32,002 bases of DNA from an uncultured delta proteobacterium (GCA_963712115.1 CAVQGX010000016.1:1-32002); one strand, 5' to 3'. Shown: positions 2,270-27,474, numbered from the stretch's first letter. The notes: generated from the sequence alone by a model not told the origin. Translations and numbers: made by a program.

Positions 2270-2920
2270 CTAGCGTACAATGTCTCCCAGGCGACTCCAC
2301 CGTACCCCAAAGTTTGTGCGATCCCAAGACCAATAAATGAGGAAGGCCTTGCCCTTAAGGTAGGCATCGGGCACGAATCCCCACACCCGGCTGTCTGAGC
2401 TCTCGTCCCGGTTGTCTCCCATTACAAAGAGGTGGTGGGCTGGAACACTAACAGGTCCAAAATTACGCAAATTGCCATAGATTGAATAACTGGCATGGGG
2501 ATCATCCGTAACCCTATCATTTATAAATAACTGCTTGTTCACCAGTTCAACCTTATCCCCAGGTAAACCAACAACTCGCTTGATGTAGTCCTTTTTTGTA
2601 TCAAGGGGATACTTGAAAACCACCACATCTCCCCGGTTCGGCTTCCCTAGATTGATTATGGTTTTATCAGTAAAAGGAATCTTGATGCCGTAGATGAATT
2701 TGTTTACCAGGATATGGTCCCCCACGAGCAGGGTGGGCTTCATGGAGCCAGATGGAATCTTAAAAGCTTGCACCACGAAGGTTCGAATAAACAGGGCCAG
2801 AACAACTGCGATGGCAATGGCCTCTGCATATTCACGGAGAACACTTTTTCGTCTCGTCTTTGCCTCTGTGAGAACGTCTTCTTTCCTGGTGTCATCACCG
2901 TGGCTAACGGTCTGACTCAT
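2270..2920 (-). CDS. lepB: Signal peptidase I
   Basis: TM segment, catalytic Ser box IPSGSMKPTL, GDHILVNK, catalytic Lys YIKRVVGLPGD, and GDNRDESSDSR. Confidence 0.96.
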   Translation of the reverse strand: MSQTVSHGDDTRKEDVLTEAKTRRKSVLREYAEAIAIAVVLALFIRTFVVQAFKIPSGSMKPTLLVGDHILVNKFIYGIKIPFTDKTIINLGKPNRGDVVVFKYPLDTKKDYIKRVVGLPGDKVELVNKQLFINDRVTDDPHASYSIYGNLRNFGPVSVPAHHLFVMGDNRDESSDSRVWGFVPDAYLKGKAFLIYWSWDRTNFGVRWSRLGDIVR

Positions 2921-3088
2921 AATCTAATATTTACCTCTCTTTTCTAAAAAAATCTTGTTGCATATGACGCATGCTGGCCTTTGTCACTACCCAACTGAAT
3001 TTTAACTCAATTAGGATCAAAGGCACCTTGCGGAGCGCCTCAAGAGTCTAGCACGATTTCATCAAATGGCAACTTATAAGTTAGCAGA

Positions 3089-3304
3089 GGGCATGGAGCA
3101 TAGAGCATGGGGCATAGGGCAGAGACTCAGAGGTCAGAGATCGGAGATCAGAGGTCAGCTAGAATGCAGGAGCCAGAATTCAGGAGAAAAGCAATTAAAA
3201 TAGAGTTTTTCTCAACTACCGGCTATTGACTACTAGGCTTTTGCCTTGAGCCTTGCGCCCTGCGCCTTTCGCCTCTCTTCAATCTACAATCTACAATCTG
3301 CAAT
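3089..3304. repeat. Heptamer-mosaic element, left arm of an inverted pair around the pil operon
   Basis: Units GGCATAG/AGCATAG, TCAGAGG, CAGGAG-CAGAAT, TTGCGCC, CAATCTA. Aligns by eye to the reverse complement of 9030-9240. Confidence 0.85.
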
Positions 3305-3534
3305 ACCCATGAGATTGGCTTAGGTTTTGCATATCACAAATTCCCCAAACACCTCATCCGTCTGAGACAAGATTGAAGAAAGAAGATCACCAGTTGAATT
3401 ATCTATGTTATTGTTTTTTGGACAAAATTAATAAGTTGTTCTTTTTTATAATGTTTTTATGAAGTTGAAAAGAAATAAACATTGGCTCACAAGCTATTAT
3501 TGACAACTGTGCTGTGGAATTATCAGAAAAATAT

Positions 3535-3563
3535 TTGACATTTTAGTGATATATCGATAGTAT
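3535..3563 (+). promoter_or_regulatory. sigma70 promoter of the pilMNOQ operon
   Basis: TTGACA (3535-3540), 17 nt spacer, TAGTAT (3558-3563), ~60 nt before pilM. Confidence 0.7.
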
Positions 3564-3624
3564 GGCGCCAAACTCGCCATAGAATTCACAAGACCTGACG
3601 TCCACCAAATATCGAGAAGAGACA

Positions 3625-4680
3625 ATGTTCGGAAAAAAATCCTCCCTCTTAGGTCTTGACATTGGTTCCTACGCGGTCAAGATCGTTCATCTGCAAGAAA
3701 GCAAAGGCACTTATCGACTAAGAGATATGGGGATAAGTCAGTTACCACCCAACGTTATCGTAGAAGGTGCAATCAAAGACCCTGACGCGGTCCAAACGGC
3801 AATTAAGAAACTCGTCACCAATTTGAAAACCAAGATGAAAGGCGTTGCTACTTCGATAGCTGGCTGGTCGGTGATTATCAAAAAAGTGGATCTACCACAG
3901 ATGAGCGAAGATGAGCTCGCCGACAATATACAACTAGAGGCGGAACAATATATCCCCTTTAACGTGGAAGACGTCAATATTGACTTCCAGATTCTTGGTT
4001 CTTCTGCAGAAAAAGCAGATCGCATGGAAGTTATGCTGGTAGCCGCCAAGAAGGAAGTCATTGAGGATTACGTAAACCTAATAAGGAAAGCCGGATTACA
4101 GCCACAAGTTGTTGACGTTGATTTCTTTGCTTTGGAAAATGCCTTCGAGGCCAATTATGAAGCTACCGAAAGTGGGGGGGTCGCCCTAGTAGATATTGGT
4201 GCCACCAAAATGAACATCAATGTCCTGAAAAATGGAGTTTCCATGTTTAACCGGGATGCCTCCATCGGCGGCTTCCAAATCACTGAGGACATCCAGCAAC
4301 GCTTCGGCCTCGAATATGAGGAAGCTGAGAAGGTCAAGCTCGGTATGTCTTCAGAGAAAGTCCCTGTTCAGGATTTAGAAGCGATATTTGTCTCAGCCGC
4401 CACCGGCTGGTCAACCGAGGTCAAACGCGCTATCGACTTCTTCTATGCCACTTACCCGGAAGAGACCATAGGACAAATTCTGTTAAGCGGTGGTTCCTCG
4501 CGTTTGCCCGGATTGGATGCTTTGTTCAACAAGGATACCAATATTCCTGTGGCTTATTTTAACCCTTTGGCCAAAATTGATTTCGACACTAAAGTGTTCG
4601 ATCAGCAGTACCTGGACTATATTGCTCCCCAGATAGCTGTTGCCGTGGGACTCGCCCTGCGGAGGGTAGGAGACAAATGA
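3625..4680 (+). CDS. pilM: Type IV pilus assembly protein PilM
   Basis: Actin-like fold motifs GLDIGSYAVK, EAEQYIPF, VDIGA and LSGGS, with C-terminal AVGLALR; first gene of the M-N-O-Q order. Confidence 0.95.
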   Translation: MFGKKSSLLGLDIGSYAVKIVHLQESKGTYRLRDMGISQLPPNVIVEGAIKDPDAVQTAIKKLVTNLKTKMKGVATSIAGWSVIIKKVDLPQMSEDELADNIQLEAEQYIPFNVEDVNIDFQILGSSAEKADRMEVMLVAAKKEVIEDYVNLIRKAGLQPQVVDVDFFALENAFEANYEATESGGVALVDIGATKMNINVLKNGVSMFNRDASIGGFQITEDIQQRFGLEYEEAEKVKLGMSSEKVPVQDLEAIFVSAATGWSTEVKRAIDFFYATYPEETIGQILLSGGSSRLPGLDALFNKDTNIPVAYFNPLAKIDFDTKVFDQQYLDYIAPQIAVAVGLALRRVGDK

Positions 4681-6123: not shown

Positions 6124-8952
6124 ATGAGGCATAGTCGAAGGTGCCCGAAACAAAGATGGATAATGTACATAGGCCTCCTGGTCTTGATTTTCTATGCTTT
6201 TGGCTGCGCTACCAAGTCTTCTGCTCCGCCAACCTCCCAGACTGCTGTTGGGGAGTCAACATCTGGTGAAACCCAACAACTCAGGGATGTTCAAGTTGTG
6301 GATCAGGATACCTCCTTGGACGTTCTTTTGGTTGGCTCAGACGCCATGACCTACACCGCCTTCAAGGCGATTGATCCCTTGCGGTTGGTGTTGGATCTGC
6401 CCAACACAGAGAGCGAAATCGTCTCCTCCCCCTTTGCCGTGGAAAACGAAATCATCGGCAAGATAGAAACCATGACCCTCACCCAGGAGCCTCAACCCCT
6501 TACTCGCGTTGAGATCGCCCTGAACCAGGAAACTCCTTACGAAATATTTCAGGAAGAGAATCAGATCCGGGTGCAGTTTGAGAAACCCACTGCATTTGGA
6601 GAGGCCAGATCTGAGCCAGCTGCCGAGACCGAAGTGGCTACCTCCAAGACTGAGGGCGAATCAACTGTTGTAGTTACTGCAACTCAGCCTTCAGCTAAGG
6701 TGGCGTCGGCACCGGCAAAAAAAATAACCGCAATTCGACCAATACGCTCAGACGAAGAAGTCAAAGTATACATAATTGGTGACGGTAACATTAGCAACTA
6801 CAACGTTTTTACCCTTACTGATCCAGCCAGGGTAGTGTTGGATCTGATGGGAGTAAAGTTGGTTGCTTCCAAAGGTGGAGTTCCCCCTTCCGACAAGATG
6901 CTCAAGGATATCAGGGTAGGCGAACACCCAGACAAGGTTAGGGTGGTTTTCGACTTAATTCCCGCTGCTGGCCTGCCATATCAAGTTACATCCGTAGACG
7001 ACCGGCTGGTTGTTTCTTTTAAACCGGGCTCGGGCTTCTCTGCCAGCCCGCCAATAGTGGTGGCCGCGCCCGCTGTTGCGCCGCGCAAAGAAGCTGCAAG
7101 AGTCAAGAGAACCCCACCTCCAACTGAACCAGCAAGAATTACCTCTATAGATTTTAACCTTCTGGAGACAAACAAGTCTCGTTTGCTTGTTAGCGCTAAC
7201 CGCCCCCTCGCGCCTGAGATTCAAATCACGGGAGCAAACTCTATCTCCATGATTTTCCCAAATACAAGGCTCCCCAAGCATCTGGAGAGACATATTGACA
7301 CAGGGCAATTCTCCAGCGCTGTTAACGTGATTGATCCCCGTCCCATGAAAGGACTTCCCGGGACGGTGGAGTTTTACATAGAGATGCGTGAAATGGTCCC
7401 CTACCACATAGCGCAAGAAGACAACAAGGTCTATCTGGACTTCGATACCTCGACGATGCCGCCAACCGAGCCCATCAAGCTTGGCAAGCCAACTACGGTG
7501 GTAGATGAACGAGCCCCAGTAGCCCCTATTCCGGGCGAGGTTCAACCACCACCTGCTGCGGAAGAAATGGCTGCAGCAGCTCCTCCCCCACCAATGGAAG
7601 AGGTGGCGCTCGAAGAGGTGGCGACTGCGGATGAGCAAGCCCTGGCAGCAGGTCCACCTCCGGAAAAGGTGGTTGGGTTAGCACCGGCCGAGGCCATGCC
7701 CCCGCCGCTTGTTGTCGGAGGGAGGTACTTAGGTCAGAAGATTTCCCTTGACCTTCAAGAAGTAGACATTCGCAACGTCCTTAGACTCCTGGCCGATGTT
7801 ACCGGCAAGAACATAGTGGTGGAGCCCAATGTCAAAGGAAAAGTGACCCTTAAAGTGGACAATGTTCCCTGGGATCAGGTGCTGGAACTGATCCTCAAGA
7901 TCAACGACCTGGATACCGTCATGGAAGGGAACGTCATCCGCATTGCCACGGCAGCAAAAATAAAATCGGAATTGGATCGAAGAAGAGAAGAGGTCGAAGC
8001 CAAAAAAGAACTCATGGCAGCGGCCAGAGATCTGGGTGAGATTACTACTGAATACCTTCAGGTCAACTACGCTGACGTGGGAGATATAAGCGCCCAGATA
8101 GAAAATATCAAGAGTGACAAGGGAACAATATCGGTTGACAATCGAACCAATTTAATTATCTACAGCGACTTTCCCAAACGGATTCAGGTAGCCAAGCAAA
8201 TCCTTGCCAGACTCGATAGGGCAACCCAGCAAGTGATGGTTGAGTCCCGTATTGTTTCAGCCAATACCAACTTCAGCCGAAACTTAGGTATCAGCTGGAA
8301 CGCCTCCTATACTGCCAACAGTTTGGCCGGTAGACTCGGAGGTTCGCCTGAGTTCGATTTCGCCGTTGCTGCACCAACTGCCGCTATTGGAACTTTTGGT
8401 CTCAATTTCACCCGGTTAGCCAACAATATCCTAGATCTGGACATGCAGCTGGATGCCTTGGAACAGGCCGGTGAGGGAAGAGTAATCTCCAGTCCGAGGA
8501 TCTTTACCCTGGACCATGTGCAAGCCATGATCCAACAGGGTGATCAGATCCCCTACCCCCAAAGGACTGAAGAGGGCACAATCAGTACTGCCTTTGCCCC
8601 GGCCACCCTCTCCTTGACCGTGACACCGCACATAACCCCTGACGGCAAGGTCCGGATGGAGGTGCTAGCTAAGAGGGACCAGGCTGACTTCAGCAGAACG
8701 GTGCAAGACGTTCCCGCCATCCGTACCCAGGAGGCCCAGACCGAACTCCTGGTAAACGACGGCGATACCATCGTCATAGGCGGTATCGTCATAAGAGATA
8801 CTGAATGGTCTGAGGCTCGGGTTCCATTTTTGTGGCGAATACCAATCTTGGGTTGGCTGTTCAAAAACCGTCAGATAAGCGATGAGAAAAGCGAGCTCCT
8901 CATCTTCCTGAGTCCTACCATTGTGGAGGATCAGAAAATGACCCTGCGCTGA
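6124..8952 (+). CDS. pilQ: Type IV pilus secretin PilQ with N-terminal AMIN-like domains
   Basis: Start chosen at ATG 6124 after AGGAGG. Lipobox-like YAFGC; AMIN-like repeats (DPLRLVLDLP, DPARVVLDL); N0 domain ISLDLQEVDIRNVLRLLA; secretin tail GDTIVIGG...VPFLWRIPILGWLFK...ELLIFLSP. Confidence 0.94.
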   Translation: MRHSRRCPKQRWIMYIGLLVLIFYAFGCATKSSAPPTSQTAVGESTSGETQQLRDVQVVDQDTSLDVLLVGSDAMTYTAFKAIDPLRLVLDLPNTESEIVSSPFAVENEIIGKIETMTLTQEPQPLTRVEIALNQETPYEIFQEENQIRVQFEKPTAFGEARSEPAAETEVATSKTEGESTVVVTATQPSAKVASAPAKKITAIRPIRSDEEVKVYIIGDGNISNYNVFTLTDPARVVLDLMGVKLVASKGGVPPSDKMLKDIRVGEHPDKVRVVFDLIPAAGLPYQVTSVDDRLVVSFKPGSGFSASPPIVVAAPAVAPRKEAARVKRTPPPTEPARITSIDFNLLETNKSRLLVSANRPLAPEIQITGANSISMIFPNTRLPKHLERHIDTGQFSSAVNVIDPRPMKGLPGTVEFYIEMREMVPYHIAQEDNKVYLDFDTSTMPPTEPIKLGKPTTVVDERAPVAPIPGEVQPPPAAEEMAAAAPPPPMEEVALEEVATADEQALAAGPPPEKVVGLAPAEAMPPPLVVGGRYLGQKISLDLQEVDIRNVLRLLADVTGKNIVVEPNVKGKVTLKVDNVPWDQVLELILKINDLDTVMEGNVIRIATAAKIKSELDRRREEVEAKKELMAAARDLGEITTEYLQVNYADVGDISAQIENIKSDKGTISVDNRTNLIIYSDFPKRIQVAKQILARLDRATQQVMVESRIVSANTNFSRNLGISWNASYTANSLAGRLGGSPEFDFAVAAPTAAIGTFGLNFTRLANNILDLDMQLDALEQAGEGRVISSPRIFTLDHVQAMIQQGDQIPYPQRTEEGTISTAFAPATLSLTVTPHITPDGKVRMEVLAKRDQADFSRTVQDVPAIRTQEAQTELLVNDGDTIVIGGIVIRDTEWSEARVPFLWRIPILGWLFKNRQISDEKSELLIFLSPTIVEDQKMTLR

Positions 8953-19398: not shown

Positions 19399-20730
19399 AT
19401 GGGCGAGACAAAAACACAAAAAGACGTACTGAAGATTGTCAAAGAGCGCAATGTGAGTTTCATCCAGATCTGGTTTACCGATGTCCTGGGCATTTTGAAA
19501 GGCTTTGCCATTACTCCCAGCGAATTAGAGGGAGCCCTGGCGGAGGGCATGGGATTTGACGGCTCTTCCATCGAGGGTTTCGCTCGGATCGAAGAGAGCG
19601 ACATGGTGGCCATGCCCGATCCCGCCACCTTCGAGTTCCTCCCCTGGAGGCCCAAAGAAAGGCCGGTTGCCCGCATGTTCTGCGATATCCTCCAGCCTGA
19701 TGGCAGCCCCTATGAGGGAGATCCCAGGTATGTGTTCAAACGCGTTTTGGCGAAAGCGGCCGAGAAGGGCTACACCTTCTATATAGGTCCGGAACTGGAA
19801 TATTTCTATTTTGAAAACAACGAATCCCCGAAGATTATTGATAAGGGAGGATATTTTGACACTCCGCCCTTGGATACCGGCGGAACTTTGAGGCGAGACA
19901 CCATTTTCGCTCTTCAAGAGATGGGAATAGAGGTTGAGTACAGTCACCACGAGGTTGCCCCCAGCCAGCACGAGATTGACTTGCGTTATGATGAGGGATT
20001 GAAAATGGCCGAAAAAGCCGCAACTCTCAGGATCGCAGTCAAAGAGATTGCCAGGCAGCACGGGGTCTATGCCACCTTCATGCCCAAGCCCATCTTTGGG
20101 GAAAACGGCAGCGGTATGCACACCCACCAGTCTCTTTTCAGGGGAAAGGTAAATGCTTTCTACAATGCCAGCGACAAGTATCACCTCTCCGATATGGCCA
20201 AGTCTTACATTGCCGGGATCATGGAGCATGCCCGTGAGATGGCTCTGGTGACCAACCAGTGGGTCAACTCCTACAAACGACTGGTTCCAGGGTATGAGGC
20301 CCCTGTCTACGTTGCCTGGGCTAGGCGCAACCGCTCCACCATGGTGCGGATTCCCATGTATAAGCCCGGCAAGGAACTGGCAACCCGAATCGAGTTTCGT
20401 TCACCAGATCCCGCCTGCAATCTGTATCTGGCTTTTGCCGCCATGCTAGCCGCAGGGTTGAAGGGAGTTGAGGAAAACTACAAACTCCCAGAGCCCATAG
20501 AGGAAGACATCTATGAAATGGATGAGGTGGCGAGGGAGCGCGCTGGGATCACTTCCCTCCCAGGAAGCCTTTTCGAAGCCATTCAAGAGATGGAAAAAAG
20601 CGAGCTCATGCGGGAAACATTAGGGGATCATATCTTCAACAAGCTTATCGCCAACAAGAAGATCGAATGGGATCGCTTCCGCACCCATGTAAGCAGATAC
20701 GAGATTGAGAATTACTTGCCGATTCTATAA
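19399..20730 (+). CDS. glnA: Glutamine synthetase type I (alpha-type length)
   Basis: FDGSSIEGF, GPELEY, HHEVAPSQHEI, TFMPKP..GENGSGMHTHQSL, NSYKRLVPGYEAP, RIEFRSPD; 443 aa. Confidence 0.96.
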   Translation: MGETKTQKDVLKIVKERNVSFIQIWFTDVLGILKGFAITPSELEGALAEGMGFDGSSIEGFARIEESDMVAMPDPATFEFLPWRPKERPVARMFCDILQPDGSPYEGDPRYVFKRVLAKAAEKGYTFYIGPELEYFYFENNESPKIIDKGGYFDTPPLDTGGTLRRDTIFALQEMGIEVEYSHHEVAPSQHEIDLRYDEGLKMAEKAATLRIAVKEIARQHGVYATFMPKPIFGENGSGMHTHQSLFRGKVNAFYNASDKYHLSDMAKSYIAGIMEHAREMALVTNQWVNSYKRLVPGYEAPVYVAWARRNRSTMVRIPMYKPGKELATRIEFRSPDPACNLYLAFAAMLAAGLKGVEENYKLPEPIEEDIYEMDEVARERAGITSLPGSLFEAIQEMEKSELMRETLGDHIFNKLIANKKIEWDRFRTHVSRYEIENYLPIL

Positions 20731-21002: not shown

Positions 21003-21662
21003 GTGACTGATAACCGGATAGAAAAGCTCCTGGAGGTTCTGACCGATACCTATGGTACCAACCCCTGGAACTGGCACACTCGTCAAACACCGTTCCAGGT
21101 TCTTATAGGAACTGTCCTCTCCCAGAGGACTCGCGATGAAAAAACAGACGAGGCCGCCAAAGCCCTCTTTTCCCGCTACCCCTCTGCTGAAATGCTGGCA
21201 GCAGCGGAGGTGGAGGAGATCGCTAGGTTAATAAGACCAGCCAACTATTACAATACCAAAGCTCTACGGATAAAAGAGATAAGTAAAATCATCCTGGAAA
21301 AACACTCAGGCAATACCCCTGACACTATGTTTGAACTCATGGGACTGCCGGGTGTGGGTAGGAAGACGGCGGCTTGTGTCCTCCTCTATGGCTTCAAGAA
21401 AAAGGCCTTGCCGGTAGACACCCACGTACACAGAATATCTAATAGGATTGGTCTAATAAACACCCAGAGCGCTGAAGAAAGTGAGGGAGAACTCTGGAAA
21501 GTGATTCCGGAGAAATACATTATGTTTTACAACGAGCTCATGGTCAAGCACGGACAGAAGGTATGCAAACCAATAGGGCCAAGGTGTCATGAGTGTCCCA
21601 TCAACGAGTTTTGTGATTATGCAGAGAGCATAGGGTCAGAGGACAGTTTCACTAGGCACTAG
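21003..21662 (+). CDS. nth: Endonuclease III (HhH-GPD glycosylase, 4Fe-4S)
   Basis: PFQVLIGTVLSQRT, LPGVGRKTA, VDTHVHRI, C-x6-C-x2-C-x5-C (CKPIGPRCHECPINEFC). Confidence 0.93.
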   Translation: MTDNRIEKLLEVLTDTYGTNPWNWHTRQTPFQVLIGTVLSQRTRDEKTDEAAKALFSRYPSAEMLAAAEVEEIARLIRPANYYNTKALRIKEISKIILEKHSGNTPDTMFELMGLPGVGRKTAACVLLYGFKKKALPVDTHVHRISNRIGLINTQSAEESEGELWKVIPEKYIMFYNELMVKHGQKVCKPIGPRCHECPINEFCDYAESIGSEDSFTRH

Positions 21663-21842
21663 GGACTAAGCACTAGGCACTTTGGCTCAGCGAGACGAGC
21701 GAGACGAGAGGTCGGGCGAGACTGGGAAAAGACAAGGCAGGCACAGAGGCCCGCCCTACTGGCCTACTGATTGCTAGGCTTTTTCAAGGCGCCTTGCGCC
21801 CTGCGCCTTGAGCCCTCAACGCTTTGCGTTATGCCCTTTGCT
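21650..21842. repeat. Short tandem repeat mosaic after nth
   Basis: CACTAGG runs, GCGAGACGA runs, and (CTTGCGC)n/GCCTTGAGCCC resembling the reverse complement of 845-885. Confidence 0.7.
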
Positions 21843-21967
21843 TCTGTAAAGACGGCCAAACTCTTCTGACTGCCCCTCACCCAAACCCCACTAGATGAAA
21901 GTACTAGCAATAAAGGGGGCAGTTTTATTAGTGTCAATGAAAGAAACTTTGCAAAATAAAAATATTG

Positions 21968-21996
21968 TTGCAATTCTTCTTGCATCTCTCTACAAT
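21968..21996 (+). promoter_or_regulatory. sigma70-type promoter
   Basis: TTGCAA, 17 nt spacer, TACAAT; ~200 nt upstream of the 122-aa gene. Confidence 0.55.
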
Positions 21997-22202
21997 GATA
22001 TTTAGTCTTTCTCAGGCTTGGTATCATGCGAACCATTGACTGAAAGAGTTTCTGCCTGATTATCAGGAGAAATAACCTTGGCCACAAAAACCTATATACC
22101 CCCAAATGAAGTTTTTCCTCACATGCTCCAAAGAGGGGGCCGGGAAAGAATATGTCCATTGCTCTTGCGGGCTGAAAAAGCCGAAACCAAAAGGAGGTTG
22201 TC

Positions 22203-22571
22203 ATGTCAATGAATTGGGGTCCGCACTTTATTGTGCCGTCAGAAACCTTAAGAGCCTTTTCAGGAAAAGTGCTCCTGAGAGAAAGTTTTGACGAGGAATT
22301 ATTGAAAACGGAACTGCGGGATTTGGGACTTTCTGGCTATCCGCTCAAGGCCACAAACCCTTGGTACTGCAGGAAAAAAGGGACTGAAACGTGGATCAAG
22401 ATCGGTGAATCCTCTGATCAAGAACAAAGCTTCGCAGTTCCCTGGGATACAACAAATCTGGAAAATGGTGAATATCAAATCTTGGGGTTAATGCATGTCT
22501 CAGTTAAGACAGAAGGAGAGGAGTTCATTGTTGCTAGACAGAATATTGTGGACGTTGTGGTTGAAAACTAG
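22203..22571 (+). CDS. Hypothetical protein (122 aa), C-terminal half Ig-like
   Basis: Strong RBS AAGGAGG. WDTTNLENGEYQI resembles the WDT..L.NG.Y motif of bacterial Ig-like domains. No signal peptide. Confidence 0.8.
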   Translation: MSMNWGPHFIVPSETLRAFSGKVLLRESFDEELLKTELRDLGLSGYPLKATNPWYCRKKGTETWIKIGESSDQEQSFAVPWDTTNLENGEYQILGLMHVSVKTEGEEFIVARQNIVDVVVEN

Positions 22572-22807
22572 GTTGACGGAAATTGACAGGAGTCGTCCTC
22601 CCGGACCCCTCAGCCTGCTTATCCGCTGATTCCTTGAAAAATCGCATTCTATGTTGCAGAGGTCTTTCACCTTTCGCTGAATATTTCTTTTAGAAGAAAG
22701 TTGGTCTGTAATGTACTTTCGAAGCAGTAGGCGACTTAAAGACCGACCTAGGTCGAAGAAGTTTTCTACCTTCTGGCTAAACTTCTTGTGATGGAGGGGA
22801 TTAAACT

Positions 22808-24236
22808 TTGGCGCAAATAATTCGTAACCGGACCTCTCCGCCTCACTTTCAGCGGGACCCCATCCTCCATAACAGCATCAAACTCGAACCAGATAAGGCT
22901 TACTTTATCTACATTGGCGATATCAAAAACCACGGGCTAAACGCTTTCCTAATCCCATATCTCGAGAGAATCTACGGTCGTCCGGTGGACTGCATCGCCC
23001 TGGTGCCCGATGTCCTGGCTAATCTATGGTTGCCCCAATTTGGCAGTTTTGAACAAGGACTCTTACCGGTATCATGCTGTCAAGGGTTTATTGGTCAATT
23101 GTCGTCCCACTGCCGGCCATTTCGCCCAGCAGGTATCAGCCAGCCTGTTCGCCCAAGAGCTTGTTGAGAACATCCTCCGTAAGCAAGATTTTGTCTACAT
23201 TCACATGTTTGAAAGCAGGCCGGAGATGACTCTGGCTGACGGTGAGAGAATCAAACTCCTTGGTCCCGATCCCACCCTGGCTTATGAATTCAATAACAAA
23301 ATCAACCAGTTCAAAATGGCTTGTGATCTGAAAATACCTGTGCCGGAAGGCTTTTCCTGTTCCTGTCTCGAAGAGGCCTTGGAAGCGGCGGAAAGATTTT
23401 TCCGCTCAGGTGAAGAGGCCTTCATTAGTGAACCCTACAGTGCAGCGGGGAGCAACAGTGCCTTCGTCTGCAACATTGAACAAATCCTCCAGAGGTTTTT
23501 CTTGGCTGAACAGCCTTACCTGGTTACCAGACGCATTCCACACACCCATGACCCCACGGTACTAGCTGTAGTGGCTAATTCCGAGGAAGTGTATGTGGCT
23601 TCCGTGGCTGACCAGAGAATGGAGCAAAATCGCTTCCGAGGATCGACTTTTCCCACCGTTCTGGGAGAAGATGTGGTCGAACGAATCAAGGATTATACAA
23701 GAATGGTGGGAAGATACATGGGTGCTAGAGGGTACAGGGGCATGTTTGGTTGCGATTTTCTGGTGGCTGAAGATGGAAAGCCTTACTTCCTTGAAGTGAA
23801 TGCTCGCAAACAAGGAACAACTTTAGAATCAACCCTGACTATGCTCTATCGTCTACCAGGCCATCCCAACCTGCTCGAGATTGAATTTTCCGCCATCACC
23901 CAAGGCAGATTACCCTGTGGCCTTAAAGAAATGGATTGCACTGAATCTGATCTCTTTTGGGGAACCTACAATGTGAAGAGCGAACAAGATATTCTTGTGG
24001 TTCAAAATCTGCCCGAACTTCAAAGCGAACCAGAGATCTTTCGACGAGTCCTTTCGGAGAAAGATTTAGAAGCGATTGCCACAGTCGAGGATCACCTCGG
24101 TATGGGAATATACCAACGGTCTGGCGGTTTTGTTGGCAGGTGCATCGCTGTGGGCAAAACCATGCCATCCATGTTCCGGCTGCTTCGCAAAAAAGAAATG
24201 GAGGTTAAATCAAGCATCCGCCCCTGGATTCATTGA
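22808..24236 (+). CDS. ATP-grasp ligase, with an apparent +1 frameshift near 23024
   Basis: TTG start after GGAGG. ORFs 22808-23167 and 23010-24236 join at ...PDVLA/YGCPNL. ATP-grasp core GYRGMFGCDFLV...YFLEVNARKQG. Confidence 0.8.
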
Positions 24237-24281
24237 GAAATGTATTGATCCGGGATACGATATGGTAAAGGAGATTCTGAG

Positions 24282-25571
24282 ATGAAAAAATTGGCTAGCA
24301 AAAAAGAAAGTCAGCAGCTCGACCCCATGGAGGTCGCCTCCGAGGATCGGGCCGTGGCCCTTGCTCGATCCGCAGAAGTCAAAAAGCTCATATCAGACTT
24401 TTTGCAGGCCCGTGAGAGAATACCTACCGGATTCAAGCTGCAAAAGGAATATGAAAAAGCCAAAAAGCGAATTCTTAAGGTTCTGAATGGTACAGAGAAA
24501 GATTGGCACAATTACAAGTGGCACCTTAATAATAAAATAGCAGAGGTGGAGACCCTCAGCAGGATAATAAGCCTCAGCCAAAGGGAAAAGCGGGAAATTG
24601 CCAAGACAGAAGAGCTCTACCGCTGGTCCATCTCACCATACTATGCAAGTCTCATGGATCCGGAAGACAGGACATGTCCTGTAAGGTTGCAGGCTGTACC
24701 CAGCATCAGGGAGCGTTTAGACGCTTCTGAGATCAAGGATCCCATGATAATAAAGTACAATTCCCCTGCGCCCCTTATCTCCAGACTTTATCCGGACAGA
24801 TTGATCATCAATGTCACCAATATGTGTTCCATGTTCTGCCGCCACTGCTTGCGGCGCAAGGATATTGGCCACAAAGACCTTATTTATTCCCGCAATCAGC
24901 TCCGCCAAGCACTAGACTACATCAGAGAAAACGAGGAAATCAGGGATGTCCTCCTTACTGGTGGGGATGCTTTGGCCTTGAGTGACGATCAGCTGGACTG
25001 GATACTCACGGAACTGGATAAGATCCCCCACGTTGAGATCAAGCGGCTCGGGTCAAGGATGCCCTGCGTCTTACCCCAAAGAATCACCCCAAGACTCTGC
25101 AAAATGCTGGAAAAGCACGACCCTGTTTACCTCAACACCCAATACAATCATCCCAAGGAGATTACAGCTGAGGCCCAAAAGGCTGTGGACCTGCTTACCA
25201 AGGCTGGAGTGGTGGTCCGCGATCAGACGGTACTTCTGAAAAACATCAACAACGATCCCCACGTGATGAAGGTGCTGATGCACGAGATGCTCAAGATCAA
25301 AGTCGCGCCTTATTATATCTTCAACTGTAAGAAAGTTGAGGGTATCAGCCATTTTCGCTCTTCCATTCAGGAAGGTTTGAACATCATGGAGCACCTCCGC
25401 GGTTACACCTCGGGCATGGCCGTACCTACCTACATCATCACCGCACCGGAGGGTAGGGGTAAAACTCCGATTGCGCCGCAATATCTCCTGAATACCAACT
25501 TCGACGGCGACGTGCTCATACGCACCTGGGGAGGTCACGTCTTGTGCTACGAAGATGAAAGAACAAACTAG
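24282..25571 (+). CDS. KamA-family radical SAM aminomutase, glutamate 2,3-aminomutase-like
   Basis: CSMFCRHC radical SAM motif, RDVLLTGGD, PLP lysine in GRGKTP. Lys rather than Asp in YYIFNCKK. N-terminal extension and absent C-terminal Zn cysteines, as I recall for clostridial glutamate 2,3-aminomutase. Confidence 0.88.
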   Translation: MKKLASKKESQQLDPMEVASEDRAVALARSAEVKKLISDFLQARERIPTGFKLQKEYEKAKKRILKVLNGTEKDWHNYKWHLNNKIAEVETLSRIISLSQREKREIAKTEELYRWSISPYYASLMDPEDRTCPVRLQAVPSIRERLDASEIKDPMIIKYNSPAPLISRLYPDRLIINVTNMCSMFCRHCLRRKDIGHKDLIYSRNQLRQALDYIRENEEIRDVLLTGGDALALSDDQLDWILTELDKIPHVEIKRLGSRMPCVLPQRITPRLCKMLEKHDPVYLNTQYNHPKEITAEAQKAVDLLTKAGVVVRDQTVLLKNINNDPHVMKVLMHEMLKIKVAPYYIFNCKKVEGISHFRSSIQEGLNIMEHLRGYTSGMAVPTYIITAPEGRGKTPIAPQYLLNTNFDGDVLIRTWGGHVLCYEDERTN

Positions 25572-26727
25572 CCTGAAAGCGCAGAAAGTAAAAAAAGCAG
25601 TTGAGTCTCTCCAGGGTGATCTCCTGACTCTTCTGGACAAGATAGTAGCCATAAACAGCTACTCTCACAATATTCAGGGCGTGGCACAGGTAGCTCGAGA
25701 GCTGAGCAAGTCTTTGCCCTCTCCTCTCACCCTCGAGAGCACCAAGAGTTCCCACGACGAAGTAGTCTGGATCTGTCGTCATGGCCCTGCTAATGAACTC
25801 CCCATTCTCTTAGTTGGCCATCTGGATACCGTTTTCCCTCCAGGCTCTTTTGACAGCGGTGTGCTTGCCCATGGTCCCCACCTGCTCGGCCCAGGAGTTG
25901 CCGACATGAAAGGTGGAGTAGTGGTAATTTTGGGGGCCCTCTGGGTCCTGGACCACTTAGGATTTTTGCCTCGGATTTCTTTGATTCTAGCCTTAAACGG
26001 AGACGAAGAAATCGGCTCTCCAAGCTCGGCACAAAAGCTAGGGGAATTAGCCCGGACCTCCCGCCTTGGCCTGGTGTTTGAATGCGGAGGGCCGGAAGGC
26101 TCGGTGGTCACCTCCCGTCGGGGCTTGGACCGTTACCGCCTGGAAATACATGGCGAGGCTGGACACTCGGGCACTCATCAGGGTGCGAAAGAAAGTGCGG
26201 TGGTGGAGTTGGCCCAGCAGATCCTAAAACTTGAAGCTCTCAACGATCCAAAGGCTGGGATCAGCCTAAATGTGGGGCGGGTCAAGGGGGGCACCGCGGT
26301 AAACATCATTCCGGCTGAAGCTGAGGCTGAACTGGAGGTCCGTTTCTTTGAGGAACAAAAGGGTGATGAGATCGAGAAAAGAATTCGCACCATGGTAAGA
26401 TCCACACCTCAGTCAAAACTGAAAATTATACTTACTAAGAGGCACGGACGTCCCGCTATGGTTTGTACATCGGCAATTTCACACCTTTACCAAGCAGCGG
26501 CCCGGATTGCTAAAAAGATCGACCTTGAATTACCCGAAGAAGCCCGGGGAGGAGCTTCAGATGCTAATTTTCTAGCTGCAACCAATCTCCCCACCCTTGA
26601 TGGTCTTGGTCCAGTGGGCGAGATGGATCACTCCAAAAATGAAAGAATCCTCAAAAATTCCCTTTTCCAGCGAGTGGAATTGCTAGTCCATCTTCTCTGG
26701 GATCTTCGTAATTGGACACCCCCATGA
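25555..26727 (+). CDS. M20 family metallopeptidase (carboxypeptidase G2-like)
   Basis: GHLDTV, GPGVADMKGG, DEEIGS, FEC, GGASDAN, HSKNE; overlaps the aminomutase stop. Confidence 0.9.
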   Translation: MKEQTSLKAQKVKKAVESLQGDLLTLLDKIVAINSYSHNIQGVAQVARELSKSLPSPLTLESTKSSHDEVVWICRHGPANELPILLVGHLDTVFPPGSFDSGVLAHGPHLLGPGVADMKGGVVVILGALWVLDHLGFLPRISLILALNGDEEIGSPSSAQKLGELARTSRLGLVFECGGPEGSVVTSRRGLDRYRLEIHGEAGHSGTHQGAKESAVVELAQQILKLEALNDPKAGISLNVGRVKGGTAVNIIPAEAEAELEVRFFEEQKGDEIEKRIRTMVRSTPQSKLKIILTKRHGRPAMVCTSAISHLYQAAARIAKKIDLELPEEARGGASDANFLAATNLPTLDGLGPVGEMDHSKNERILKNSLFQRVELLVHLLWDLRNWTPP

Positions 26728-26784
26728 ATGAGGAACGGGGAAGGGGGAATGCGGAACGGCAGCTAAATGTGGTAATATTAAATT

Positions 26785-27267
26785 CTACATTCCCCGTTCC
26801 GCGTTCCCAACTCCCACTTCGGTCGCCTGCTGGTATTGATAACCGTCCCGTAATCTACTGTGTTCAATAGCATCTTTGAGAATCAAGAGAAATTGCCGCA
26901 ACTGTAAAGGCTTGCGCAGGTAACTGTAGGCACCTTCATATTTTGCTTCTAAAAGGGTTTCCGAGGAAGGAGTGTCGGTAACCAGGACAACCTTGGCTCG
27001 AGGTTGGATTTTTTTAACAAACTTAAGCACTTCCATTCCGCCGGCACCCGCCAGCATCAGGTCAGTGATAACCAAGTCAAAAGACTGTCTCGCGACTAAA
27101 TCCAACGCCTGAAAGCCATCGCCACAGGTGCGTACCCTGTAGCCCGAGACCTGGAGCAACTTGGCCATCATCAGACGTAAAAGCTTGTCTTTCTCCGCAA
27201 TGAGAACCTCTGGTGCACAAAGTTTATGCGGACTAAGATTGGAGGCTAAATAGTCTGTATTTGCCAT
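26785..27267 (-). CDS. Single-domain response regulator (receiver)
   Basis: DLVITDLML (phospho-Asp), LVT, YLRKP. Start moved to ATG 27267 (AGGGGTG upstream) because the ORF-track start lies within the sigma54 promoter. Confidence 0.85.
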   Translation of the reverse strand: MANTDYLASNLSPHKLCAPEVLIAEKDKLLRLMMAKLLQVSGYRVRTCGDGFQALDLVARQSFDLVITDLMLAGAGGMEVLKFVKKIQPRAKVVLVTDTPSSETLLEAKYEGAYSYLRKPLQLRQFLLILKDAIEHSRLRDGYQYQQATEVGVGNAERGM

Positions 27268-27295
27268 TATTACACCCCTGTAAAGATGGTAGTTG

Positions 27296-27311
27296 AGCAA
27301 CTGTTGTGCCA
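27296..27311 (-). promoter_or_regulatory. sigma54 (-24/-12) promoter of the receiver gene
   Basis: Minus strand TGGCAC-AACAG-TTGCT. Confidence 0.85.
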
Positions 27312-27474
27312 GAGAGGGAGAAGAAAGGATGGAAGTATTGCAGAAAGAAAAAAGTATTTAAATTACGGTACTATACGAAGTGATTTTTACAAGAGAGAAG
27401 GTCGCCAGTTCAAGCATAAATGGGTTTTTTCGTATCTTGCAATGTACAAGGGTACACTGATGACGTCTCCCAAT

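Follow-up and report, generated by a model that had tools for sequence, protein, structure and literature searches.

Analysis of a 32,002-nucleotide (nt) stretch of DNA from an uncultured delta proteobacterium (GCA_963712115.1, CAVQGX010000016.1:1-32002; the whole stretch is called the window below) reveals a three-gene cassette at positions 22808 to 26727 that encodes, in this order, an ATP-grasp ligase, a KamA-family aminomutase resembling glutamate 2,3-aminomutase (EAM), and a metallohydrolase of the M20 family. We propose, with a probability of roughly 45% and on the strength of sequence comparisons, that the cassette makes a small beta-amino-acid amide, in that the KamA enzyme would form beta-glutamate, the ATP-grasp enzyme would ligate it, and the M20 enzyme would hydrolyze the product. 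In anaerobes of saline sediments, such a compound would most likely serve as a compatible solute or as a reserve of nitrogen or carbon. The three coding regions, with lengths in amino acids (aa), are as follows.

22808-24236, plus strand: carboxylate-amine ligase with an ATP-grasp domain, from an unnamed family of ~470 aa (open reading frames [ORFs]; Pfam ATP-grasp_3)
24282-25571, plus strand: KamA-family radical S-adenosylmethionine (SAM)/pyridoxal phosphate (PLP) aminomutase, glutamate-2,3-aminomutase-like, Lys/Thr subtype (429 aa)
25555-26727, plus strand: M20 dimeric metallohydrolase, carboxypeptidase-G2-like (390 aa)

The 45-nt gap between the ligase and KamA genes, the 17-nt overlap of the KamA and M20 genes, and the convergent orientation of the response regulator gene downstream together mark the trio as a tight unit. 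The original prediction, made from the window alone, had described a tight three-gene operon; the layout agrees with this, and the families that it named are backed by Pfam and NCBIfam. Two frames are needed to read the ligase gene, one at 22808-23167 (119 aa, TTG start) and the other at 23010-24236 (408 aa).

Conservation of the cassette

A one-genome-per-species scan gave 189 confirmed stretches carrying the cassette, and the best 80 of these 189 are the loci analyzed throughout. The KamA gene lies directly 3' of the ligase gene, or is fused to it, at 77 of the 80, the remaining three stopping at a contig edge. Of the 57 loci with enough space downstream (at least 2,900 nt), 52 have an M20 gene there, that of L032 being only a weak 151-aa match, and it is missing at L043, L052, L053, L063, and L095. 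The order of ligase, mutase, and hydrolase is invariant among the loci. Since other families and phyla have these three genes in this order as well, the trio is not a chance arrangement, and the conservation that the original prediction had named as a check speaks in its favor.

This association is further strengthened by natural ATP-grasp-KamA fusions, found as 15 protein clusters of 915-957 aa that carry the ATP-grasp_3, Radical_SAM, and LAM_C domains; one fusion was read directly as a 922-aa ORF. All are 67-69% identical to the query and therefore represent one lineage. An ATP-grasp enzyme fused to the mutase must use or supply the mutase's substrate or product. A predicted complex of the separate ATP-grasp and KamA proteins scored 0.01 against a mark of 0.32, a result from which the tool gives no verdict either way.

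The three genes agree in dividing the loci into two clades, A (L017-L032) and B (the remainder). Clade A comprises the window and 13 loci, with a KamA of ~430-450 aa that carries the pocket pair Lys/Thr described below, and clade B comprises 57 loci, with a KamA of ~525 aa that has an N-terminal extension of ~100 aa, an inserted Tyr-Arg, and a Ser/Thr pair (Ser/Ala in one case). Named carriers are Desulfopila aestuarii DSM 18488, Desulfoprunum benzoelyticum DSM 28570, Desulfosediminicola flagellatus, Deferribacter thermophilus, and D. abyssi, and the cassette also occurs in bins labelled Desulfonatronovibrio, Desulfonatronospira, Hippea, Nitrospiraceae, and Brocadiaceae. Near-identical DNA is present in marine, estuary, and other sediment metagenomes.

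The aminomutase

The KamA protein carries LAM_C (50.6 bits) and Radical_SAM (35.2 bits) domains and passes the cut-off of the general model for KamA family radical SAM proteins (TIGR00238, 301.4 bits; cut-off 199.2). Its best family model is that of glutamate 2,3-aminomutase (TIGR04368, 611.3 bits), and it fails the cut-off of AblA, the lysine 2,3-aminomutase (LAM) model (TIGR03820, 449.2 bits; cut-off 525.4). Alignment to the LAM structure 2a5h (369 bits) places the following residues, whose LAM counterparts we take to have their usual roles, including binding of the alpha-carboxylate by Arg134.

24825-24854, plus strand: cluster motif CSMFCRHC (Cys182, Cys186, and Cys189; residues 182-189) and Arg191 at LAM Arg134 (2a5h alignment)
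25329-25331, plus strand: Lys350 (YYIFNCKK) at LAM Asp293 (2a5h alignment)
25440-25463, plus strand: Thr387 (IITAPEG) at LAM Asp330, and Lys394 at the PLP-binding Lys337 (2a5h alignment)

The Lys/Thr pair is found in 119 of the 120 best homologs of the window KamA (63-96% identity), and the Arg134 equivalent is retained in all cassette KamAs. Eight of eight close Lys/Thr homologs tried against TIGR04368 scored 576-605 bits, all under its cut-off, and close homologs bear the NCBI label "KamA family radical SAM protein" only. A 53%-identical representative, P0136, does pass this model (693 bits; cut-off 650) and has a Lys/Asn pocket in the motifs FHAKH and VNAPKGLGK. In the Clostridioides difficile EAM studied by Ruzicka and Frey in 2007, the corresponding residues are reportedly Lys332 and Asn369. 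A quick maximum-likelihood tree groups clade A, the EAM-like Lys/Asn proteins, and clade B apart from the Asp/Asp enzymes (Shimodaira-Hasegawa-like approximate likelihood ratio test support, 97), with clade A as sister to P0136; the placement of clade B is less sure because of its long branch.

By its pocket residues, the window KamA is not a lysine enzyme, since it belongs to a Lys/Thr sister clade that is EAM-like and lies below the TIGR04368 cut-off. The original prediction had placed Lys and Thr at the two substrate-binding Asp positions of LAM, had given Lys and Asn for true EAM, and had called the enzyme EAM-like without being identical; the alignment to Asp293 and Asp330 of 2a5h, the pocket of P0136, and the separate position in both the hidden Markov model scores and the tree uphold each of these statements. 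With the C. difficile type of EAM (TIGR04368), the cassette KamA shares the fold, the Cys-x3-Cys-x2-Cys motif, the PLP Lys, the Arg134 equivalent, and the Lys at the Asp293 site, whereas it differs in scoring under 650 bits, in having Thr in place of Asn and FNCKK in place of FHAKH, and in being paired with an ATP-grasp ligase at all times among the loci examined. The pocket Lys, the kept alpha-carboxylate Arg, and the affinity to EAM suggest that the substrate is an acidic amino acid in its free form, with L-glutamate as the simplest candidate.

The ATP-grasp ligase

The window ATP-grasp protein matches ATP-grasp_3 (PF02655) with 44 bits and an ortholog does so with 49 bits (cut-off 23.2); intact orthologs from the same genus are 475 aa long. 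No NCBIfam model is dedicated to the family, and the databases give it no functional name; its 436 clusters (E <= 1e-30) are labelled "ATP-grasp domain-containing protein," "hypothetical protein," or "predicted carboligase." Its only sequence-level neighbors, all of them weak, are amino-acid and peptide ligases, namely BesA, LdmS, 8ynd, and PGM1. BesA is the best match among Protein Data Bank (PDB) and NCBIfam entries, if a weak one (8yi6, E 2.8e-4), and the family scores below the cut-offs of the amino-acid ligase families (NF042917, 28 bits against 750; NF047900, LdmS, 25 bits against 475). Structural neighbors in the Atlas include PGM1_C/PreATP-grasp clusters.

Glu262, Asn264, and Arg266 of the E-x-N-x-R motif, and the first ATP-binding Lys, Lys97, all of which we take to be Mg-ATP residues, are retained. 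The place of a second lysine, which binds ATP in biotin carboxylase, is apparently occupied as follows.

23427-23429, plus strand: Ser140 of ISEPYSAAG, where ATP-grasp enzymes of the biotin carboxylase type have their second ATP-binding Lys (weak alignment)

The Ser is aligned to the Lys of pyruvate carboxylase 7wta in a tentative 10-bit alignment. ISEPYSAAG had been pointed out from the sequence as replacing the usual Lys-Pro motif, and it is indeed present. All 65 family members compared share F205, S211, G214, and S217, and the conservation of the motif region across these 65 marks ISEPYSAAG as a family trait and not as damage to the window copy.

The predicted structure of an 83%-identical ortholog (predicted local distance difference test score, 92.7) has PurT, PurK, PurD, biotin carboxylases, PylC, and a Streptomyces peptide ligase as fold neighbors, all at Z 24-26. 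These neighbors bear on a different chemistry, in which the ATP-grasp enzyme would N-carboxylate or N-formylate the beta-amino acid in the manner of PurK or PurT and the M20 enzyme would be the matching N-carbamoyl or N-formyl amidohydrolase. PurT (Z 26.1) and PurK (Z 26.0) are nominally the top folds (Foldseek E 2e-20), the automatic names of Atlas neighbors include "putative biotin carboxylase," and the M20 protein has weaker matches to a hydantoinase/carbamoylase-family amidase (53 bits) and to the N-carbamyl-L-glutamate amidohydrolase ErtE (42 bits). Yet these Z values lie within 2 units of those of PylC and the peptide ligase, PurT and BesA give equally weak sequence matches, the family motif E-V-N-A-R-K-Q-G-T-T has Thr at the Glu that we take to be catalytic in biotin carboxylase, and N-carboxy amines are unstable. 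We regard this chemistry as very improbable, and amide ligation as the preferred function.

An extra base lies near 23023 (23021-23025) in the window ATP-grasp gene relative to four of four congeners in a DNA alignment. Contigs from four public sediment metagenome runs were compared with the window over 22700-23400; these runs (X1, X2, X4, and X5) hold relatives and are not the source sample (sampled-word share <= 0.59). All eight contigs that span the site lack the base at 23021-23025 (one in X1, four in X2, one in X4, and two in X5), and the whole depth is accounted for in each run. Absence from all congeners and all contigs makes the base either an assembly error or a lesion private to this assembly, which bears out the earlier view that the ATP-grasp gene should be read as repaired. 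A consensus error is more likely than a real lesion.

The insertion could nevertheless be real, the ligase a pseudogene, and the pathway off in this organism only, the cassette being in decay. The site lies outside any homopolymer run, the genome has a single copy of the cassette, and the cassette is dispensable in the genus, with strong matches in 10 of 17 congeners and an 80-aa remnant as all that is retained in G011. Set against this, the KamA and M20 proteins are complete and keep every key residue, the ligase frame is otherwise open and 83-84% identical to intact orthologs, the extra base is missing from every one of the contigs and congeners compared, and the site falls in a stretch dense in single-nucleotide polymorphisms in a 70-contig metagenome bin (94% completeness, 6% contamination), where consensus errors are common. 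Decay in this genome is unlikely in our view, and a lesion in the window copy would leave the family untouched, since the ligase is intact elsewhere. A second indel lies in the leader 5' of the ATP-grasp gene (22775-22780), where most environmental contigs have a one-base deletion at 22775 or 22776.

The hydrolase

The M20 protein carries Peptidase_M20 (PF01546, 79.9 bits) and M20_dimer (PF07687, 76.9 bits) domains, and its best solved relative is carboxypeptidase G2 (CPG2; 6xj5/1cg2, 102-104 bits over residues 20-384). His89, Asp117, Glu151, Glu152, Glu176, and His359 align with the same residues of CPG2, and we take these six positions to be the metal and catalytic sites of that enzyme. The protein stays under the curated cut-offs for PRK06133 "glutamate carboxypeptidase" (215.1 bits against 349) and PRK07338 "hydrolase" (253 against 357). 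Its N-terminus does not look like a signal peptide by eye, so that the enzyme is probably cytoplasmic. CPG2 shares with it the dimerization domain and the active-site positions but is periplasmic, and the cassette enzyme falls below the PRK06133 cut-off. The expected substrate of a CPG2-like cytoplasmic M20 enzyme is an amide with an acidic amino acid at its end.

Proposed pathway and its weighing

Three steps, whose chemistry we infer, would follow one another. In the first, KamA with SAM, a [4Fe-4S] cluster, and PLP would shift the amino group from C2 to C3 of free L-glutamate or of a closely similar acidic amino acid; the pocket residues and the phylogeny suggest beta-glutamate as the product. 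In the second, the ATP-grasp enzyme would activate a carboxylate as an acyl phosphate and couple beta-glutamate to a second amine or amino acid, giving a beta-glutamate dipeptide or amide, as the family and the fusion to the mutase suggest. In the third, the cytoplasmic M20 enzyme may hydrolyze the amide again, a role consistent with its likeness to CPG2 and its intact metal site, and the pool could in this way be drawn down or recycled. The original prediction had proposed the synthesis and recycling of a beta-glutamyl amide or peptide, a reading that would fit these steps. Passages in PMC1224877 describe beta-glutamate and beta-glutamine as known osmolytes, and eam genes are placed behind Na+ riboswitches in passages of PMC9337991. 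Together with the saline-sediment carriers, these osmolyte roles make a compatible solute the first guess for the product.

Several observations weigh against this pathway. The KamA score of 611.3 bits is under the TIGR04368 cut-off of 650, and Thr takes the place of the Asn of the passing protein. The KamA of clade B, the commoner one, with its Ser/Thr pair, inserted Tyr-Arg, and N-terminal extension, reaches only ~340 bits against the same model; its substrate may be different, though its ligase and hydrolase are orthologous. In the ligase family, the second conserved ATP-binding Lys seems to be absent, and the tie of the fold neighbors at Z 24-26 means that ligase-type and carboxylase-type ATP-grasp enzymes cannot be separated by fold. 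Synthesis and hydrolysis within one operon are unusual for an osmolyte. Neither a Na+ riboswitch nor any other Rfam family is found upstream of the window's cassette (none at the gathering threshold in the whole window, and none at E <= 1 in 21600-22900), and the GntR-FCD regulator genes (11 loci) and TAXI-TRAP transporter genes (16 of 80) described below look more like uptake or catabolism. The cassette is also rare and patchy (6 of 301 genomes sampled from the phylum), and the strong matches in 10 of 17 congeners, with the remnant in G011, make it dispensable within the genus. The TIGR04368 cut-off is passed in none of the same 301 genomes.

The remnant in G011 (L130, G011:C1:824000-840000, ~7861-8100) is an 80-aa match to query residues 289-355 with 57.5% identity and stands beside the end of a response regulator gene. 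Searches with tblastn using the window KamA and M20 proteins gave no match in the surrounding 16 kb, and the cassette seems to have been deleted in G011.

The retained alpha-carboxylate Arg in all cassette KamAs means that aminomutation of a peptide-bound substrate, which the original prediction had also considered, is possible solely for a side-chain-linked conjugate. In such a scheme of protection, rearrangement, and deprotection, the ATP-grasp enzyme would join the side-chain carboxylate of glutamate, or of a related amino acid, to an amine, KamA would isomerize the conjugate, and the M20 enzyme would release the beta-amino acid or modified product. The alpha-amino and alpha-carboxyl groups would stay free, following the logic of BesA, which forms gamma-Glu-propargylglycine, or of LysX/LysK. 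The invariant order of ligase, mutase, and hydrolase fits this sequence of events; the best, if weak, match of the ligase is the gamma-glutamyl ligase BesA; an ATP-grasp enzyme with an M20 deacylase makes up the LysX/LysK pairing; and the small Ser at the Asp293 site of clade B, with its reshaped loop, could accommodate a larger substrate. The ligase-mutase fusion is compatible with either order of reaction. In clade A, however, the Lys at the Asp293 site, as in the enzyme that passes TIGR04368, would suit a distal carboxylate that is free, the small ORFs within 900 nt at the 80 loci include no conserved carrier-protein gene, we know of no KamA enzyme that acts on a conjugate, and ATP would be wasted on balance unless the conjugate itself is the product. 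We consider this order of events improbable. The bolder form, in which the true substrate of the mutase would be the ligase product, a side-chain-conjugated glutamate, in a previously undescribed pathway of strict anaerobes, appears to us just as doubtful; if true, it would provide the first KamA-type enzyme to act on a conjugate and an end product that represents a new class of beta-glutamate-based solute or reserve. The formation of free beta-glutamate followed by its ligation remains the reading that we prefer.

Neighboring genes

A binding protein of the TAXI type (NMT1_3, 283 bits) and a fused DctM permease (266 bits) are encoded near the trio at 16 of the 80 loci. In clade A, the TAXI binding protein, the permease, and a universal stress protein (Usp) gene lie directly upstream on the same strand at L028 and L030, and the permease and Usp gene only at L029 and L032; these loci are outside the window's genus. 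An ORF of 161-171 aa with an Lcl_C domain lies in between at L028, L029, and L031. A GntR-FCD regulator gene is directly upstream on the same strand at 11 loci, and a CBS-ACT protein is encoded downstream of the trio at nine.

Such neighbors raise the possibility of uptake and conversion, in which the TAXI-TRAP system would bring in a dipeptide, an N-acyl-glutamate, or an acidic amino acid. Glutamate would then be released by the M20 enzyme, isomerized by KamA, and fed onward by the ligase, with the GntR-FCD regulator in control of the genes. Beyond the transporter and regulator genes themselves, the patchy accessory distribution of the cassette is typical of substrate-utilization modules. On the other hand, it is hard to see what an ATP-consuming amide ligase would do in a degradative route, the trio has no recurring aminotransferase, dehydrogenase, or CoA-transferase gene beside it, most loci, the window included, lack the transporter, and pairs of TRAP and Usp genes also serve osmolyte uptake, as in TeaABC-TeaD. 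Uptake and conversion thus seem to us an unlikely purpose of the cassette, and synthesis of a beta-glutamate amide is retained as the working proposal.

Small ORFs (30-95 aa) within 900 nt of the cassette, among which a LysW-like carrier gene was sought, recur in at most 9 of the 80 loci, and the commonest cluster (9 of 80) looks like an antisense shadow. An amino-group carrier system of the LysW/LysX/LysK type was rejected, as no small carrier gene recurs beside the ATP-grasp and M20 genes. Among larger ORFs, none recurs at the 80 loci beyond the TRAP, GntR-FCD, CBS-ACT, glutamine-synthetase-like/KamA, and similar neighbors reported here. A secondary-metabolite context was likewise rejected, as no nonribosomal peptide synthetase, polyketide synthase, or other biosynthetic gene recurs among the neighbors at these loci.

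In the window itself, the cassette is flanked by the following features.

26785-27300, minus strand: convergent receiver-domain response regulator (Response_reg, 73.8 bits)
22203-22571, plus strand: 122-aa ORF upstream, of doubtful cassette membership (conserved in the genus only)

The response regulator gene is 3' of the trio at L017, L018, L021, L022, L023, and L026, a neighbor kept within the genus. The 122-aa ORF (22203-22571) has no Pfam or NCBIfam match; its homologs, searched with the window protein, lie 5' of the cassette at 4 of the 80 loci (L017, L018, L019, and L024) and are 122-139 aa long at L017, L018, and L024. Further upstream in the window are a gene for a 443-aa glutamine synthetase-like protein (19399-20730, plus strand), named by its likeness to the glutamine-synthetase-like cluster of other loci, and an endonuclease-III-like gene (21003-21662, plus strand), named by eye only. 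The two precede the cassette in the same order at L017, L018, and L024, a synteny confined to the genus. A promoter and terminator scan of 21600-27400 was uninformative, with 6 promoter-like signals against 6.0 expected and 2 terminator-like signals against 7.2 expected.

Other KamA genes stand beside ligase-like genes. At L043, L064, and L094, a glutamine-synthetase-like gene and a second KamA of the Glu/Thr type accompany the trio, and at L044 they lie between KamA and M20. The genome that supplied the window encodes a second KamA (460 aa) whose pocket is Asp/Asp, as in true lysine 2,3-aminomutase (L097, C27:90223-94194, ORF 1264-2646), and the end of its gene is overlapped by the gene for a 356-aa D-Ala-D-Ala-ligase-like ATP-grasp protein (ORF 2640-3710; Dala_Dala_lig_C, 85 bits), which makes a mutase and ligase pair. 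In a third pair (L099, C59:14135-18085), a glutamine-synthetase-like ORF (20-1291; Gln-synt_C, 332 bits) is followed by a 368-aa KamA (ORF 1468-2574) with Glu/Thr at the two pocket positions. The two additional pairs hint at a wider, unrecognized "aminomutase plus amide ligase" chemistry.

Precedents among known systems

Each enzyme of the cassette is from a known superfamily, and the logic of the pathway has precedents. Carnosine synthase and carnosinase make and split a beta-amino-acid dipeptide by an ATP-grasp enzyme and an M20 enzyme, the same superfamily pair as in the cassette; they are, however, animal enzymes and not orthologous, and their beta-alanine comes from elsewhere. In the PylB/PylC pair, likewise, a radical SAM mutase rearranges an amino acid, which an ATP-grasp ligase then couples to another amino acid, and PylC is a tied fold neighbor of the predicted ligase model (4ffr, Z 24.8; 4ffl, Z 24.6). 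PylB, in contrast, is not a KamA/PLP enzyme, the cassette is without PylD and the Pyl system without M20, and identity to PylC is 9-11%. The BesA, PGM1, and LdmS ligases are the sole sequence-level neighbors of the cassette ligase, and its structural neighbors in the Atlas carry PGM1_C/PreATP-grasp domains, although the ligase is far under the family cut-offs (28 against 750 bits) and its context is no secondary-metabolite cluster. [quoted passage not shown] The cassette differs from it in an acidic-type pocket in place of Asp/Asp, in an ATP-grasp enzyme in place of GNAT, and in the added M20 enzyme.

Significance

Our literature searches on aminomutase, ATP-grasp, M20, beta-glutamate, and beta-glutamine found no description of the trio, in line with the original prediction, which knew of none. 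The cassette is carried by at least 189 species-level genome stretches, and its ligase forms 436 protein clusters; it spans sulfate reducers, Deferribacter, Hippea, Nitrospiraceae, and one Brocadiaceae bin, and includes several cultured strains, which makes the proposal directly testable. The natural fusion protein is an attractive structural target for the coupling of a ligase to a radical SAM enzyme. Beta-amino-acid solutes are known mainly from methanogens. Solving the cassette would give a function to a nameless ligase family and to a clade of Lys/Thr KamA enzymes that has only generic labels from annotation pipelines, and may reveal a new osmolyte or storage compound in the anaerobes of marine sediments.

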